Source: Candidatus Brocadiia bacterium (GTDB taxonomy: Bacteria > Planctomycetota > Brocadiia > CAIUPP01). Taken from it: a DNA stretch of 64,000 nucleotides. The notes under the pieces were generated by a model, which was not told the origin of the DNA, searched no databases, and was given only the letters and a program-made list of their open reading frames with translations. The stretch's first letter is position 1, and each line of letters opens with the position of its first letter. This document shows positions 1 to 44,136 of the stretch, piece by piece. Location of the stretch: positions 154,476 through 218,475 of the forward strand of contig JBEKCB010000004.1 in NCBI GenBank assembly GCA_050015075.1, written 5' to 3'. The translations under genes were made by a program, and so were the position numbers.

Positions 1-447
1 GTTGACGAACGAGATCGCGGACGCGCCGATGATCTCGCGGCAGACGTTCACGCAGAGCCCGCAGAGGATGCAGTCGCGCTGCGATTGCGTCACCGTCGGC
101 AGCCGCCCGGCCTTGACGCCGAGCAGCTTCGCCATTTCCTTCAGCGGCTCCGATTCCGGCGCGCGCGCCAGGAGCAGTTCCATCACGCCGCGGCGCGCCT
201 TGACGACTTTGTCGCTCGTGGTCGAGACGACCAGCCCGTCGCGGACGTTGTAGCAGCAGGAGGTGACGATGCGCGTCCGGCTGCCCTGCTTGACCTCGAC
301 CAGGCAGAGCCGGCACGCGCCGTACGAAGCCACCGCCGGATGGTAGCAGAGCGCAGGGACGAAAATCCCCGCCGCGCGCGCCGCGTCGAGCACCGTCGCG
401 CCGTCGCGAATCTCAACCGTCTTGCCGTCAATCGTCAGTTTCGCCAC
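1..447 (-). CDS. 2Fe-2S/4Fe-4S subunit (NuoG/HoxU/HydA N-terminal-like), runs off the window start
   Basis: Manual translation from GTG at 447: MAKLTIDGKTVEIRDGATVLDAARAAGIFVPALCYHP...YGACRLCLVEV...TSCCY...CILCGLCVNVC; directly downstream of the NuoF-like gene. Confidence 0.85.
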   Translation of the reverse strand, partial: MAKLTIDGKTVEIRDGATVLDAARAAGIFVPALCYHPAVASYGACRLCLVEVKQGSRTRIVTSCCYNVRDGLVVSTTSDKVVKARRGVMELLLARAPESEPLKEMAKLLGVKAGRLPTVTQSQRDCILCGLCVNVCREIIGASAISFVN

Positions 448-459
448 AGCCTCACCTTC

Positions 460-617
460 ACCACCAAGGCACCAAGGCACAAAGACATGACGACTTCCAC
501 GACGGAATACACGGAGCACACCGAATGAATTTCCTAAACAGCTTCAGTGTCTTCCGTGTGTTCCGTGGTTGCAATATCAGCTGACGTTCTTGGTGCCCTC
601 GTGCCTTGGTGGTAAAA
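460..617. repeat. Nested palindromic intergenic element
   Basis: Outer arms CACCACCAAGGCACCAAGGCACAAAG / CTTGGTGCCCTCGTGCCTTGGTGGT enclose inner arms ACGGAATACACGGAGCACACCGAA / TTCAGTGTCTTCCGTGTGTTCCGT. Confidence 0.8.
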
Positions 618-618
618 A

Positions 619-2490
619 CTAGACTTTCGCCACCGCCGAGAACGGGCAGACCTCGTAACATTTCCCGCACCGGGTGCACTTTGCGGCTTCGATGACGTGC
701 GCCTGCTTGCGCTCGCCGGTGATGATCTTCTCGGGGCATTCCTTCTTGCACAGGCCGCAGCCTTTGCATTTCTCGGCGACGATCTGGAACTTGAACAGCC
801 CGCGGCACTCGTGCGCCGGGCAGTGGCGCTCGAGGATGTGCTCGTCGTATTCCTTGCGGAAATAATGGATGGTGCTGCGGATCGGGTTGCAGGCGGTATT
901 GCCGAGCCCGCAGAGCGCGGCGACTTCGAGGATATCGCAGAGTTCCAGCAGCAGCTCCACGTCGCCCGGCTGGCCTTTGCCCGCGCAGATGCGCTCGAGG
1001 ACGTGCAGCGCCTGGGCGACGCCTTCGCGGCAGGCGGTGCATTTCCCGCAGGACTCCTTGACGAGGAAGTCCAGGAAGTACCGCGCCACGCCGACCATGC
1101 AGGTGTCCTCGTCCATGACGATGAGGCCGCCGGAGCCCATCATCGAGCCGAGCTTCGTCAGCGCGTCGAAATCCACCGGCGTATCCAGCAGGCTCTCCGG
1201 GATGCATCCGCCGGACGGGCCGCCGGTCTGCACGGCCTTCAGCTTCCGCCCGCCGGGCACGCCGCCGCCGATGTCGCAGACGATCTCGCGCAGGCTCATG
1301 CCCATCGGCACCTCGACGAGGCCGGTGTTCGTGATCTTGCCGACGAGCGAGAAAACTTTGGTGCCCTTGCTGCCTTCGGTGCCGACGGAGGCGAACGCCT
1401 TCGCGCCGTTCGTGATGATGTACGGCACGTTCGCCCAGGTCTCGACGTTATTGAGCGTGGTCGGCTTGCCGTGGAGACCGACCTCGACGGTGTGGACGTA
1501 CTTCGCGCGCGGCTCGCCGACCTTGCCCTCGAGCGAGGCCATCAGCGCGGTGGATTCGCCGCACACGAACGCGCCGCCGCCGCGGTTGATGCGGATGTCG
1601 AAGGAGAATCCCGAGCCGAGGATGTCCTCGCCGAGCAGCCCGTACCGGTGCGCGTCCTCGATCGCCTGGCGCAGCCGGACGACCGCCAGCGGGTATTCGT
1701 TGCGGACGTAGATGAAGCCCTGGTGCGAGCCGATGGCGAACGCGCCGATGATCATCCCCTCGATCACCGAGTGCGGCACGTCCTCCATGACCGAGCGGTC
1801 CATGAACGCGCCCGGGTCGCCTTCGTCGCCGTTGCAGATGACGTAGCGGACGTCGCCGTGCGCGTCGCGGCAGGTGCGCCACTTGCGGCCGGTCGGGAAC
1901 CCGCCGCCACCGCGGCCGCGCAGGCCGGAAAGCTCGACTTCCTTGATGATCTGCTCGGGCGTCATCTCGGTCAGCGCCTTGGCGAGCGCGGCGTAACCGC
2001 CCATGGCGATGTAATCGTCAATGCTCGTCGGGTCAATGAACCCGTTGTAGCGCAGGACGAAGCGCGTCTGCCTGCGGTAGAAGGGAATCTCCTGGCTGGT
2101 GGCGACGCTCTTTCCGGTGTCCGGGTCCGCGTAGAGCAGCCGGGCGACGGCGCGCCCGCCGAGGATCGTCTCGCGCACGATCTCGGGCACGTCGGCCTCC
2201 TGAACGTTGCAATAGAGGATATTGCCGGGATGCACGATGAGGATCGGCCCGATCTCGCAGAAACCGTGGCAGCCGATGCGCTTGAGCTGCACGTCTTTGC
2301 CGCCGGCACGGACCTCCTCGACCGCCCCTTGCAAGGCCGCGAAGAGTCTGCCGGAACCTTTGACCTCGCATCCACCGCCCCGGCAGAGCGAAATCACCGT
2401 GCCGGTCGGCTTGCCGCGCGCGGCGGCCTCTTCGCGAAGGCGCGCCAGGTCGGCGGGCGAATTCAGCAGCCGTTCCGTCGCGACGATCAT
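619..2490 (-). CDS. NADH-binding flavoprotein, NuoF/HydB/HoxF-like, with N-terminal thioredoxin-like 2Fe-2S and C-terminal 2x[4Fe-4S]
   Basis: GLRGRGGGGFPTG, CNGDEGDPGAFMDR, AFVCGESTAL, ESCGKCTACREG, and two C-terminal CxxCxxCxxxCP motifs. Confidence 0.95.
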   Translation of the reverse strand: MIVATERLLNSPADLARLREEAAARGKPTGTVISLCRGGGCEVKGSGRLFAALQGAVEEVRAGGKDVQLKRIGCHGFCEIGPILIVHPGNILYCNVQEADVPEIVRETILGGRAVARLLYADPDTGKSVATSQEIPFYRRQTRFVLRYNGFIDPTSIDDYIAMGGYAALAKALTEMTPEQIIKEVELSGLRGRGGGGFPTGRKWRTCRDAHGDVRYVICNGDEGDPGAFMDRSVMEDVPHSVIEGMIIGAFAIGSHQGFIYVRNEYPLAVVRLRQAIEDAHRYGLLGEDILGSGFSFDIRINRGGGAFVCGESTALMASLEGKVGEPRAKYVHTVEVGLHGKPTTLNNVETWANVPYIITNGAKAFASVGTEGSKGTKVFSLVGKITNTGLVEVPMGMSLREIVCDIGGGVPGGRKLKAVQTGGPSGGCIPESLLDTPVDFDALTKLGSMMGSGGLIVMDEDTCMVGVARYFLDFLVKESCGKCTACREGVAQALHVLERICAGKGQPGDVELLLELCDILEVAALCGLGNTACNPIRSTIHYFRKEYDEHILERHCPAHECRGLFKFQIVAEKCKGCGLCKKECPEKIITGERKQAHVIEAAKCTRCGKCYEVCPFSAVAKV

Positions 2491-41029: not shown

Positions 41030-42538
41030 GTGACTAACTACCCACTGTTTGACCTCGGCCTACCTCACGAGTTGATCGCCGACTTGGCGCGGCAGAATCC
41101 GTGGTGGGAGAATAAGCCGCTACCGATGGTTCCGGCTTTCCATCGCTGGCCGTTCGACAAGCTCCGCCAAAGACTTGACCAACCGATTGCCTCCATCGCA
41201 GTGGTTCGTGGACCACGGCAGATAGGCAAGACAACCCTTCAGATGCAGTTGATCCAATCCCTGCTCGACGACGGAAAGATAGCGCCGCAGCGAATACTCC
41301 GAGTTCAGTTCGACGAACTCCCGGCGTTGACTGCCGCCAAGTTGCGAGAACCCATTTTGCGTATAGCTGATTGGTTTGAAAGAGCGGTGCTGAGGTCCAC
41401 GCTGAACGAAAGCGCTCATCGGCAAGAGCCTGGGTTCCTCTTTTTTGACGAGGTGCAGAATCTCCCAGGTTGGGACGCACAGCTCAAGTCTTTGGTTGAT
41501 CATACTACTGTTCGAGTCATGGTCACCGGCAGTTCTGCCTTGCGTATAGAGATGGGGCGCGACAGCTTGGCTGGCCGCATCCATTCGCTGGAAGTCGGGC
41601 CTCTCCGTTTGACTGAGATTGCAGCCTTACGCGGCTTTGGACAACTGAGGGCCCTGCAGGCGGATAATGGCTCGCAGGATTGGCTGAAAGCTGATTTCTG
41701 GCGGGCATTGACCGAACACGCCCATTCTCAAGCAGCTGTGCTCACGGGCGCTTTCGCCGCCTTTTCTCAGCGCGGCGCGTATCCGCTCGCGCAAAAGATA
41801 GCAGACGTTCCCTGGGAGGACATCGCCGCACAACTTAATGAGACAGTTGTCAAACGCGTCATTGAGCATGACCTTCGCGTCGGCGAACGTGGTCGGAAGC
41901 GCGACCGCCAACTGCTTGAAGAAGTGTTCCGTATGGGCTGCCGTTATATCGGCCAAAGCCCGAATCCCGCCACTCTGGCATCAGAAGCACAGAGAACGCT
42001 CAGCGGCAATGTGGGTCCTCAGCGCATTCGACACTACTTGGATTTCCTCGACAGCAGCCTCTTGTTGAGAACCATCAGTCCCTTGGAGATACGGCTGAAG
42101 AAGCGGCATGGCTACAGCAAGCTATGCCTGTGCGATCACGCGATCAGAGCCGCGTGGTTACAGGAGGTCGTTCCACTTGAAATCGGAGCGTTGGATCGCT
42201 CGCCGCATCTGAGCGACCTTGCTGGGCGCATTGCCGACAGCACTGTCGGATATTTCTTCGCGTCCCTGACCGGTCTTTCTGTCGCACATCTGCCGGAACG
42301 GCGGGGAGATCCGGAAGTGGACTTCATCCTCACTATCGGAGACAGGCGCATACCGGTCGAGGTCAAATATCGCAGAGTCCTCGACGACTTAAGCGACACT
42401 GTAGGCCTCCGAACTTTCATTGAGAAAGCAGCCAACAACGCGCCCTTTGGGCTGCTGGTCACGCGCGGTGATGCTCCACCAGTCCCCGACCCCCGCATTA
42501 TCACAGTTTCCTTGCCTGCCCTGCTCATTGTCCGCTAA
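41030..42538 (+). CDS. AAA+ ATPase (AAA_14/DUF4143-like) with C-terminal PD-(D/E)XK-like motif
   Basis: GPRQIGKTT, FFDEVQ, VTGSSA, SLAGR, EVDF...PVEVK; lower GC. Confidence 0.85.
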   Translation: MTNYPLFDLGLPHELIADLARQNPWWENKPLPMVPAFHRWPFDKLRQRLDQPIASIAVVRGPRQIGKTTLQMQLIQSLLDDGKIAPQRILRVQFDELPALTAAKLREPILRIADWFERAVLRSTLNESAHRQEPGFLFFDEVQNLPGWDAQLKSLVDHTTVRVMVTGSSALRIEMGRDSLAGRIHSLEVGPLRLTEIAALRGFGQLRALQADNGSQDWLKADFWRALTEHAHSQAAVLTGAFAAFSQRGAYPLAQKIADVPWEDIAAQLNETVVKRVIEHDLRVGERGRKRDRQLLEEVFRMGCRYIGQSPNPATLASEAQRTLSGNVGPQRIRHYLDFLDSSLLLRTISPLEIRLKKRHGYSKLCLCDHAIRAAWLQEVVPLEIGALDRSPHLSDLAGRIADSTVGYFFASLTGLSVAHLPERRGDPEVDFILTIGDRRIPVEVKYRRVLDDLSDTVGLRTFIEKAANNAPFGLLVTRGDAPPVPDPRIITVSLPALLIVR

Positions 42539-42554
42539 GGGCATTCAAATAAAC

Positions 42555-42583
42555 TTGCACTCCGGCGAATTTCGCCGTATAAT
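42555..42583 (+). promoter_or_regulatory. Strong sigma70-type promoter with palindromic spacer
   Basis: TTGCAC-17 bp-TATAAT; spacer contains CGGCGAATTTCGCCG. Confidence 0.7.
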
Positions 42584-42589
42584 AATTCG

Positions 42590-42872
42590 AAACGTCCCCG
42601 AACGAACCGCGGGGATGCGGGTCGCGCAGTCGTGCGCGACGGGTCCTCGTTTGAGCGAACTTCCGCTCAGGCCAGGAGCAAAAGGCCTCGACCTTCCGGA
42701 ACGGTTCGCCGGATACGTGTCGGGCAGCCTTTTGTGGAAAGGAGGTGGTCCAGCAGTGTGCCATAGACCTAGGAGGCCGCTGACGTAAGCCGGCCGACGG
42801 GCCCGCTTCGTCGGCGGCCCCGATAAGTGTGCCGGGCCGGTCCTCATCGCGAGGATCGGCCCGGTTGCTTTT
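42590..42872 (+). ncRNA. Candidate structured small RNA (unknown family) with extended Shine-Dalgarno and 10-codon ORF
   Basis: Bounded by a promoter and a terminator; chain of hairpins; AAAGGAGGTGGTCCAGC at 42738-42754; ORF 42756-42788 MCHRPRRPLT. Confidence 0.55.
42831..42872 (+). terminator. Intrinsic terminator-like hairpin
   Basis: GCCGGGCCGGTCCTC-ATCGC-GAGGATCGGCCCGGT-TGCTTTT. Confidence 0.65.
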
Positions 42873-42909
42873 AACCGCCAAGAGGCGCAAGAATTCGCTG
42901 GACAGTCGT

Positions 42910-44136
42910 TCAGGCCAGACTGCGCGTGGCGGCGGAGATGAATTCCTCCGTGGTGACCCAGCTTTCGCGCGGCGGGTCGGCGGTCTCGTGGACCAGGCGC
43001 GCCAGGTCGCGGGTCATTACGCCGGACTCGATGGCGCCGAGGACGGCATGTTCCAAGGCTGCTGCGAAGGCGGAAAGCTCCGGCGTCTGGTCCAGCTCGC
43101 CGCGTTTCCGCAGCGCGCCGGTCCACGCGAAGATCGTGGCGACCGAGTTCGTGCTCGTCGGCTTCCCGGCCAGGTGGTCCTGGTAGTGCCGCGCGACGGT
43201 GCCGTGCGCCGCCTCGAACTCGTACTGGCCGTCCGGGCTGACCAGTTCCGACGTCATCATCCCGAGCGACCCGAACCCCGCCGCGACCATGTCGCTCAGC
43301 ACGTCGCCGTCGTAATTCATCAGCGCCCAGAGGATGCCGCCCTCGTGCTTCATCATCTGCGCCACCGCGTCGTCAATCAGCAGGTACCGGTACGCGATCC
43401 CGGCGGCGGCCATCTCGTCTTTCCGCCGCGCGACCTCCTCGGCGAAGACTTGCTTGAAGAAGGTGTGGTACGTCTTGCTGATCGTGTCCTTCGACGAGAA
43501 CCAGATATTGATTTTCTCGTCGAGTGCGTAGCGCAGGCACGCGCGCGCGAACGAGCGGACCGACTTCTCCGTGTTGTGCATCGCCATGACCACGCCCGGC
43601 CCTTTGAACTCATGCACGAGATGCCGCGTCGGCTCGCCGGAGACGGGCCCGCCCTGAGCCTGTCGAATGGGAGTGAAGACGATCTCGGCTCGGCCCGGGC
43701 CGTGGACTTCGATCTCGGCTGCCTTATAGATATCGCCGTACGCATGGCGGCCGATGACGATCGGCTTGCGCCAGCTTCGCACGGCCACGGGCACGTTCGA
43801 GGCCAGGATCGGCTTGCGGAAGACGGTGCCATCGAGCTCGCCGCGGATCGTGCCGTTCGGGCTCGGCCAGGCCTTCTTGAGGCCGAACTCCTTCACCTGC
43901 GCGATGCTCGGCGTGATGGTGGCGCACTTGACGCCGACGCCCTGCCGCCGGATCGCCGCCGCCGCGTCGTGCGTCACCCGGTCGTCCGTCCGGTTGCGGT
44001 TCTCGAGGCCGAGGTCGTAGTATTCCAGCTTCACATCCACGAACGGCAGGATGAGTTTATCCTTGACCAGCCGCCAGATCACGCGCGTCATCTGGTCGCC
44101 GTCCATCTCGACGATGATGCCCTTGGAATGAATCAC
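42910..44136 (-). CDS. icd: NADP-dependent isocitrate dehydrogenase (type II)
   Basis: [44 protein letters not shown]. Confidence 0.95.

Follow-up and report, generated by a model that had tools for sequence, protein, structure and literature searches.

What kind of gene lies at 42590-42872 in a 64,000-nt stretch of DNA (hereafter the window) from Candidatus Brocadiia bacterium (contig JBEKCB010000004.1), where a long complement to the 3' end of 16S rRNA runs up to a 10-codon open reading frame (ORF)? All coordinates are positions of the window, on its plus strand unless stated. A sequence-only reading of this DNA had offered three answers: an undescribed ribosome-binding RNA (a 30S decoy or a hibernation/standby factor), a micro-peptide mRNA with a structurally gated ribosome-binding site, or a type I toxin-like unit. 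We find a gene for a highly structured RNA, present in one copy and equipped with its own promoter and terminator. Its product is probably an rre-type small mRNA of ~283 nt, transcribed on its own and built to seize a 30S subunit. The kind is thus not undescribed, as the earlier reading had it: small mRNAs combining a 16-17 nt extended Shine-Dalgarno (SD) sequence with a tiny ORF were published in 2016 as rreB, from Bradyrhizobiaceae, and rreR, from Rhodobacterales (Hahn et al., RNA Biol 14:1353, PMC5711450; statements on these genes below follow its main text), and the alphaproteobacterial forms are in Rfam as CC2171. Within the searches made, the window RNA is the first case we found of a relative of the rre mRNAs, a distant one, outside Alphaproteobacteria. 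New are the host, far outside that class, an added 5' domain, an RNA family of its own, and the occurrence of similar genes elsewhere in the phylum, where 23 of 401 genomes sampled gave matches. The case is a computational one, built on sequence features, conservation, a coding signature, covariation and presence in RNA libraries. The features that carry it are the following.

42555..42583, plus strand: promoter read from the sequence, with -35 TTGCAC (42555-42560), a 17-nt spacer and -10 TATAAT (42578-42583)
42590..42872, plus strand: whole predicted transcript, ~283 nt, bounded by promoter and terminator
42736..42754, plus strand: extended SD, GGAAAGGAGGUGGUCCAGC, pairing with the 16S 3' end over 17 nt from 42738 (one G.U) or over 19 nt (two G.U)
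42756..42788, plus strand: micro-ORF with GTG start, MCHRPRRPLT (10 codons), TAA at 42786-42788
42771..42776, plus strand: internal second SD-like AGGAGG, whose GGAGG ends 9 nt ahead of the stop codon
42831..42872, plus strand: intrinsic terminator found by terminator scan, a 15-pair stem (42831-42865) followed by UGCUUUU; 4 of 15 pairs show compensatory changes (helix 13)

An extended Shine-Dalgarno sequence and a conserved micro-ORF

With up to 2 mismatches allowed, the 16S-complementary 17-mer AAAGGAGGTGGTCCAGC (42738-42754) has a single occurrence in the window, against 0.03 expected in shuffled sequence. The assembly that holds the window (66 contigs, 93.6% complete) returned no match in a search for 16S rRNA, and the 16S of a genome of the same family (G003) was used in its place. 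This full-length 16S ends ...GCGGCTGGATCACCTCCTTTCT, and it can stand for the family because the partial 16S sequences of two further members (G001 and G002) are 91.5-91.8% identical to it. The tail ...GGAUCACCUCCUUUCU is also present in G006, a cultivated member of the class. Against the G003 tail, the 17-nt complement with one G-U pair described by the sequence-only reading holds. Should CU be retained at the mature 16S end, the duplex would grow to 19 nt (42736-42754) and have a predicted energy of -37.3 kcal/mol; its last four pairs presumably use the 3' strand of helix 45 (E. coli numbering).

By DNA search, each of the three other family genomes contains the element, at identities of 96% and 81%, and a pattern scan of metagenome contigs returned 30 loci, 8 of them of the window's type. 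Family genomes and metagenome loci were pooled into 8 distinct sequences, which constitute a distinct family of RNA with a ~150-nt structured 5' domain ahead of the SD. The 16S complement is invariant in all 8. The GTG start lies 1 nt beyond it in the window and the start codon 0-2 nt beyond it in relatives; at one locus (L174) the complement runs into the GTG. In the predicted fold, the first 4 nt of the extended SD (42736-42739) are unpaired (p ~0.9), and the remainder sits in a small hairpin (GUGGU/GCCAU) that also holds the start codon; the same gating hairpin is predicted in 6 of 7 relatives.

The micro-ORF MCHRPRRPLT, which the sequence-only reading had placed after the GTG, is kept in the relatives, as is the complement before it. 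Among the 8 distinct sequences the start is GTG in four and ATG in four, codon 5 alternates between CCT and CCC and codon 10 between ACG and ACT, and the stop is TAA, TGA or TAG, with no amino-acid change anywhere. Since only about a quarter of the possible single changes in the 33-nt ORF would be silent (~25 of 99), it is unlikely, as judged from these sequences, that at least five kinds of substitution would all be silent by chance. Indels of 0-2 nt in the spacer between CCAGC and the start leave the frame intact.

The ORF reads its arginines as AGA, AGG and AGG, rare codons here as the earlier reading had noticed: AGR makes up just 4 of 103 arginine codons in three neighbouring genes. Their use is explained by the second AGGAGG at 42771-42776, also flagged by that reading, because the internal GGAGG motif is read as Arg-Arg. 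An exact GGAGG ending 9-12 nt ahead of the stop recurs in 15 of the 24 tabulated elements of the phylum, representing 11 families, and two further families in the same table have GAGG at 11-12 nt before the stop. Mostly it is read as Arg-Arg (CGG AGG; AGG AGG in the window). The f12 locus and a 9-codon metagenome type carry their G-rich motif in another reading frame (IGGL), which points to a signal at the RNA level. Alphaproteobacterial ORFs contain 130 SD-like 4-mers, and 71 of these are placed 5-14 nt ahead of the stop.

The promoter is backed by conservation in place of a scan. TTGnnn, 17-18 nt and TAnnnT occupy the same place in all 8 distinct relatives (alignment, by eye), and the promoter scan listed no site at the locus on either strand, because the -35 agrees with TTGACA at just 3 of 6 positions; the -10 matches its consensus at 6 of 6. 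The promoter elements seen by the sequence-only reading are thus in place, while its term "near-consensus" overstated them. The hairpin that it took for a terminator was picked up independently by the terminator scan (42831-42865, 15 pairs, then TGCTTTT).

RNA structure

Folded as RNA, 42590-42872 reaches a minimum free energy (MFE) of -161.9 kcal/mol, against -124.4 +/- 5.9 kcal/mol in shuffles (z = -6.35). Across an alignment of 7 sequences, both partners have changed in 15 of the 87 pairs, which none of 500 shuffles matched; 96.7% of alignment cells are paired, compared with 38-48% after sliding the partners. Covariation support is located in P1, P2, P4/P5, P6 and the terminator. The hairpins are as follows.

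42593..42617, plus strand: hairpin P1, CGUCCCCG/CGGGGAUG, in the MFE fold; compensatory changes in 3 of 6 pairs (helix 2); loop GAACC (42604-42608) invariant
42621..42640, plus strand: hairpin P2, GUCGCGCA GUCG UGCGCGAC (helix 4), 8 pairs, 1 compensatory; a similar hairpin occurs in G011
42644..42677, plus strand: hairpin P3, confined to the window's genus-level group and missing (34 gap columns) in 3 of 7 aligned relatives
42678..42735, plus strand: long hairpin P4/P5, GCAAAAGGC...GCCUUUUGU closing on UCCGG/CCGGA, in the MFE fold; P5 loop GGUUC (42703-42707) invariant
42775..42819, plus strand: hairpin P6, GGCCGCUGACG ... CGUCGGCGGCC, with apical GGCC-GACG-GGCC (helices 11 and 12); its 5' arm is formed by the last four ORF codons

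Most helices named by the sequence-only reading reappear in the MFE fold (TCCCCG/CGGGGA, GTCGCGCA/TGCGCGAC, TGAGCG/CGCTCA, TCCGG/CCGGA and GGCCGCTGACG/CGTCGGCGGCC); its CCTTT/AAAGG and AGGCC/GGCCT do not. The MFE fold pairs CCUUUUG with an upstream CAAAAGG. An alternative in which CCUUUU pairs with the SD is 1.2-5.8 kcal/mol costlier in 7 relatives. RNAalifold favours this CCUUUU/AGGAGG hairpin and single-sequence MFE folding the CAAAAGG/CCUUUUG pairing, and both partners are invariant. Parts of the fold reach beyond the family: CAAAAGG and CUUUUG of P4/P5 are kept also in G011 (family f6 of the same class) and in locus L200 of family f89, and the P6 apical sequence GACGGGCC is present in G011 and the f89 loci.

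Two further observations concern the fold. The P1 loop GAACC is complementary to the P5 loop GGUUC, and both are invariant in the 8 family sequences; the match suggests a loop-loop contact, not seen in G011, which we offer as a lead only. A metagenome contig (L156, ~436-665, minus strand) holds an RNA of the window's type in which P6 is split by an insert and its 3' arm resumes downstream.

Presence in RNA libraries

The sequence-only reading predicted a transcript, and contigs from RNA libraries, which resolve neither strand nor ends, do cover the element. Six metatranscriptome runs contain ~30-35% of the sampled words of the element. In four of these, from four studies, assembled contigs of 80-212 nt with 85-99% likeness mapped on 42596-42831 when 42400-43000 was used as the target. 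Three contigs begin at ~42594-42597, 11-14 nt past the -10 box, a weak hint of the transcript 5' end. The flanks (42400-42595 and 42832-43000) attracted no contig in the four runs mapped, a lack of cover that proves nothing.

Relation to the rre genes and to Rfam CC2171

The rreB gene of Bradyrhizobiaceae adjoins a tRNA-Gly gene and produces a 165-nt mRNA with a 14-codon ORF. Its complement to the 16S 3' end is 17 nt long, perfect, and takes in the G of the GTG; only the 5' few nucleotides are predicted to be single-stranded, the remainder and the start codon being held in a hairpin. The RNA co-sediments with 30S subunits and is translated weakly; the complement was found to impede translation. 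Replacing the GUG with UAG lengthens the half-life of the RNA from 10 to 37 min. Overexpression had no effect on growth, the RNA was judged far scarcer than ribosomes, and its function was given as unknown. The peptides RreB and RreR are unrelated, and the analogs reported in that main text came from four alphaproteobacterial orders only (PMC5711450).

Like these genes, the window element is a stand-alone mRNA with its own promoter and terminator, at least 16-17 nt of 16S complementarity around AGGAGG, and a tiny ORF (10-18 codons, usually starting with GTG) in a genomic context that is not conserved across families. As in rreB, an unpaired seed is predicted, and a hairpin takes up the start codon together with the remaining complement. 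The two also differ. The window RNA carries a ~150-nt domain before the SD, whereas rreB is 165 nt in all; its complement has one G.U, whereas that of rreB is perfect; and its peptide is unrelated to the rre peptides. The hosts are also remote, the G003 16S being 75.8-76.1% identical to those of Bosea and Brevundimonas, which share 90.8% with each other.

The Rfam search recommended by the sequence-only reading gave no match above threshold. The window scored 29.1 bits with the closest family, RF01867 (CC2171), whose gathering score is 75 (E = 0.0011 over 2.5 kb); the family genomes G001-G003 scored 27.8-30.5 bits, and none of the 132 genomes of the class reached the cut-off. In the same scan (41500-44000, E up to 1), just two chance snoRNA matches accompanied it, and tRNA and tmRNA searches found none at the locus. 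The CC2171 consensus starts with GAAAGGAGGUGAUCCA-GUGUCUCAU and ends in a terminator hairpin, and the window aligns with the model from end to end. Where CC2171 has this 5' motif, the window reads GAAAGGAGGUGGUCCA, GCA, GUGUGCCAU: the SD differs by one transition, 3 nt are inserted, and codon 2 carries two changes. The Rfam model begins ~8 nt before the SD, compared with the ~150-nt 5' domain of the window. Rfam files CC2171 as a non-coding small RNA (sRNA), and the family, known from Caulobacter, has been validated by Northern blot in Methylorubrum with no function given there (bioRxiv 10.1101/2022.01.24.477521).

A one-genome-per-species scan for AAAGGAGGTGRTCCAG followed after 0-5 nt by TGTNNCAT returned at least 120 loci, nearly all titled ones alphaproteobacterial. 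Among the 120 loci listed, 119 have a GTG overlapping CCAG that opens an ORF of 14-33 codons, mostly 21-25, whose product starts with MSH and usually MSHC. Four such alphaproteobacterial loci score 88-102 bits with RF01867, and the score is 55.7 bits for a 14-codon locus of rreB type that adjoins a tRNA gene. Because of this shared motif and these scores, CC2171 and the rre genes look like one family. We did not see the link stated: the main text of Hahn et al. has no occurrence of "Rfam", nor, supplementary alignments aside, of "internal" or "SD-like" (PMC5711450).

Several side observations were made among the alphaproteobacterial loci. In L013-L132 the ORF keeps its length, mostly 21-25 codons, while the peptide varies after MSH. 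Many of these ORFs contain a stretch, ACCTGGATCCTCGCCTC for example, similar to the 16S 3' end itself, with which the extended SD could pair. The patterns left one complement position free to be A or G, either of which pairs with the 16S U facing it; G stands there in 10 of the 120 listed loci and also in several families from the window's phylum (L192-L214). All other positions are fixed by the patterns. Two metagenome-assembled genomes labelled Hydrogenophaga intermedia (L062/G513) and Parcubacteria group (L066/G514) carry the alphaproteobacterial element; their labels or bins look wrong, because their 16S is 94.2% identical to Bosea and 95.4% to Brevundimonas.

Distribution in the phylum

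We built a covariance model (R1) from the window's RNA family. Within the class (132 genomes, 11 families) it matches only the family's training genomes and G011, which has the same 5' architecture and the ORF MSYHDRRWLSP; a 22.8-bit match in G123 was taken as noise. Elsewhere in the phylum R1 recognizes three f89 loci (45.9, 27.7 and 25.9 bits) and one f79 locus (23.1 bits).

The pattern AAAGGAGGTGRTCCAGND has matches in 23 of 401 sampled phylum genomes, compared with 3 for the reversed control. Of the 22 other matches, 21 open an ORF of 10-19 codons, and they represent nine further families; the start is a GTG overlapping CCAG in 20 of the 22 and an ATG 1 nt later in one. One match (L193) has no start codon at the right place and was rejected. 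In the class-wide scan of 132 genomes the pattern gave 9 matches and its reversed control 12, and each match was therefore read individually. Four f5 matches (L182-L185, in G031, G033, G015 and G124) are AAGGAGGTGATCCAG inside coding frames, AAG GAG GTG ATC CAG being read as KEVIQ (by eye); bare 15-mer scans give such false positives because AAGGAGGTGATCCAG also occurs in protein frames. Two further loci, L024 (gap 1, CTG) and L149, look like chance pattern matches.

The metagenome loci contain other types beside the window's. In 17 of the 30 (L147, L150, L151, L153-L155, L157, L162, L163, L165-L169, L173 and L175 among them) GAAGGAGGTGGTCCAG is followed by AA and GTG TCT CAT; this type encodes MSHSNTVT[VLS]EVV[ST]S (14 codons) and has an imperfect SD copy, GAGGTGGTTTCCAGC, just ahead of the stop. 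A type with 9-11 codons (L158, L161, L170, L171 and L164, with L201 of f12 and L207 of f79) has its GTG overlapping CCAG and encodes peptides such as MTCRIGGLP, MACNIGWLP, MSSDCIGGLRF and MSDCIKGLHS; its G-rich motif before the stop lies in another frame than the Arg-Arg motif of the remaining types.

Proposed mechanism and alternative explanations

We hypothesize that GGAAA, a stretch of 4-5 unpaired nucleotides on the 5' edge of the extended SD, nucleates pairing with the 16S tail, upon which the gating hairpin, holding the remaining complement and the start codon, would melt. A duplex of 17-19 bp would then form, taking the whole single-stranded 16S tail and reaching the base of helix 45, and the GUG, 10 nt downstream of GGAGG, would be set in the P site. 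Translation of the 10 codons would probably be slow, with a very long SD helix to break and P6 to unwind, and ribosome engagement may couple to, or drive, decay of the RNA as it does for rreB. Once a ribosome has arrived at the stop, 6 nt separate the internal GGAGG from the last sense codon, a normal SD-to-P-site spacing; the anti-SD could re-pair there and keep the 30S subunit tethered to the RNA, a stop-anchoring role that we infer for the second SD. By analogy with rreB, 30S binding, weak translation and start-codon-dependent decay would also apply at the window locus. Physiologically, the gene could deliver a peptide effector or serve as a read-out of free 30S subunits; conservation of the peptide is perfect within the family and does not extend between families.

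Several points weigh against an rre-type mRNA at this locus. Binding, translation and decay are carried over from a single alphaproteobacterium, in which overexpression gave no growth phenotype (PMC5711450), and the window start codon lies 1 nt past the complement, whereas the rre complement ends in the first base of GTG. R1 scores alphaproteobacterial loci and other metagenome types at no more than 21 bits; because of this, and because the window stays below the RF01867 threshold, common descent with the rre genes is unproven, and convergence is possible. The peptide diverges even within the class, MCHRPRRPLT in the window against MSYHDRRWLSP in G011. The 8 compared sequences are close kin, and their silent sites fall at weakly paired or unpaired RNA positions, so that RNA constraint could be part of the coding signature. 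Helices 8-10 around the SD and start codon are invariant in the alignment, which leaves the gating hairpin without covariation support. Finally, the RNA records are assembled contigs, blind to strand, ends and level, with DNA carry-over possible.

The weightiest competitor is a mainly non-coding 30S-binding RNA (an anti-SD cap, a decoy, a factor for standby or for a hibernation-like state, or an RNA that protects or senses the 16S 3' end), whose ORF just loads and releases ribosomes and whose peptide has no role of its own; we judge it unlikely. It would account for a complement far longer than translation needs, for a large conserved 5' domain with no coding role, and for peptides that are unrelated between families, RreB versus RreR as well as window versus G011 and others; SD pairing (GUGGU/GCCAU) would explain codons 2-3, and the internal GGAGG the Arg-Arg motif. 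A comparison can be drawn with RMF, the hibernation protein that masks the anti-SD in Gammaproteobacteria: an RNA on the whole 16S tail would block the same site, the differences being that RMF is a protein and that nothing in this analysis links the window RNA to stationary phase. In rreB, moreover, the complement impedes translation and the full-length RNA sediments with 30S (PMC5711450). What speaks for a translated ORF instead is that the family's ORF differences are all silent, that three different stop codons stand at one place, and that ORF length is held in narrow ranges (10-19 codons in the phylum, mostly 21-25 in the 119 listed alphaproteobacterial loci). The decoy or hibernation role of the sequence-only reading, in its plain form, is further countered by rreB, whose overexpression did not slow growth and whose RNA is far scarcer than ribosomes (PMC5711450). 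Of the three original answers, the ribosome-binding RNA and the gated micro-peptide mRNA both match rreB biochemistry as described there, and the third fares worse.

That third answer, a type I toxin-like unit, can be taken together with a leader-peptide attenuator of a neighbouring gene, and the pair is highly improbable, even with a tiny ORF, rare codons and a hairpin and terminator right behind it. Among the 10 residues are three Arg and two Pro, and no part of the peptide forms a hydrophobic stretch; we noted no antisense gene, and the promoter scan gave no site on either strand. For an attenuator there is nothing to attenuate, because the next gene is convergent and the neighbours differ in four genomes; the terminator U-tract, too, is on the plus strand only. 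The trpL/rnTrpL RNA and its peptide peTrpL in Sinorhizobium are alike in their very small ORF, structured RNA and terminator, with RNA and peptide both possibly active, and differ in lying upstream of the operon that they control and in having ordinary SDs, as opposed to an extreme SD and no downstream gene in the window (PMC6614838 and PMC7298713, in the parts consulted). A base-pairing regulatory sRNA, whose purine-rich motifs (AAAGGAGG, AGGAGG) would target pyrimidine-rich anti-SD-like stretches and whose 16S match would be incidental, is very unlikely. A stand-alone, structured, terminator-ended RNA with a single-stranded seed fits it, as does the filing of the alphaproteobacterial relatives as sRNA in Rfam; the invariant complement, however, matches the 16S tail over 17-19 contiguous nt, the start codon stays at SD spacing in 8 of 8 sequences despite spacer indels, and 30S binding has been shown for rreB (PMC5711450). 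A longer protein gene in the frame open over 42420-42788 (122 codons, TTG start) shares frame and stop with the micro-ORF, and was rejected as extremely unlikely: it is not conserved in relatives, 6 of 8 of which have in-frame stops 120-186 nt upstream of the start, the 5'-domain indels (34, 2 and 1 nt) are not multiples of three, the variation in that domain is compensatory in hairpins with no longer ORF conserved, and this frame takes in the promoter as well as the end of the upstream gene.

With the rre-type mRNA as the preferred explanation, its wider meaning can be considered. The rre/CC2171 RNAs have the longest natural SD sequences described; in the literature searched we found no further work on rreB or rreR, and the only three citing papers found there appear to come from the authors' own group. 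The recurrence of one design at phylum-level distance, its spread, a second SD at a fixed distance from the stop and the 5' domain in the window's family together suggest that it has been selected for an action on the ribosome and not for one lineage's peptide. The analysis also links an "sRNA" family of Rfam to translated micro-ORFs. We put forward as a speculation, itself doubtful, that extended-SD micro-mRNAs form a cross-phylum "captive-ribosome" class. A start anchor of 17-19 nt would occupy the entire 16S tail and open the base of helix 45, and a GGAGG stop anchor, 9-12 nt ahead of the stop, would re-pair with the anti-SD at termination, so that one 30S subunit is held and recycled on one RNA; the RNA, and not the peptide, would act as a sensor or buffer of free or immature 30S, or as a guard of the 16S 3' end, with the 5' domain of this phylum docking on the subunit, and the class would be ancient or have evolved twice, in Alphaproteobacteria and in this phylum. 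If an RNA does hold or sense 30S subunits, this would add a new, RNA-based layer of ribosome control.

Genomic context

The gene downstream is, as the sequence-only reading had recognized, a convergent isocitrate dehydrogenase gene (icd, 42910-44136, minus strand; Pfam Iso_dh, E = 1.9e-49), and upstream lies an AAA_14/DUF4143 ATPase gene (41030-42538, plus strand). The gene order is hydrogenase-ATPase-RNA-icd in the window (genome G000), hydrogenase-RNA in G001, serA-RNA-icd in G002 and amidohydrolase-RNA-proB in G003; a convergent gene follows the RNA gene in G000 and G002, and the flanking genes differ in G001 and G003. With its own promoter and terminator, and neighbours that differ across the four genomes, the RNA element is an independent gene. 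Around 124 loci no neighbour cluster was dominant; the largest comprised 17 loci and consisted of stop-to-stop frames overlapping the element itself. The ATPase gene, which lies between a NiFe-hydrogenase gene and the RNA gene, has a GC fraction of 0.57, compared with 0.65-0.67 in its neighbours. It looks like an insertion, because in G001 the hydrogenase gene is directly upstream of the RNA gene with no ATPase gene between them.

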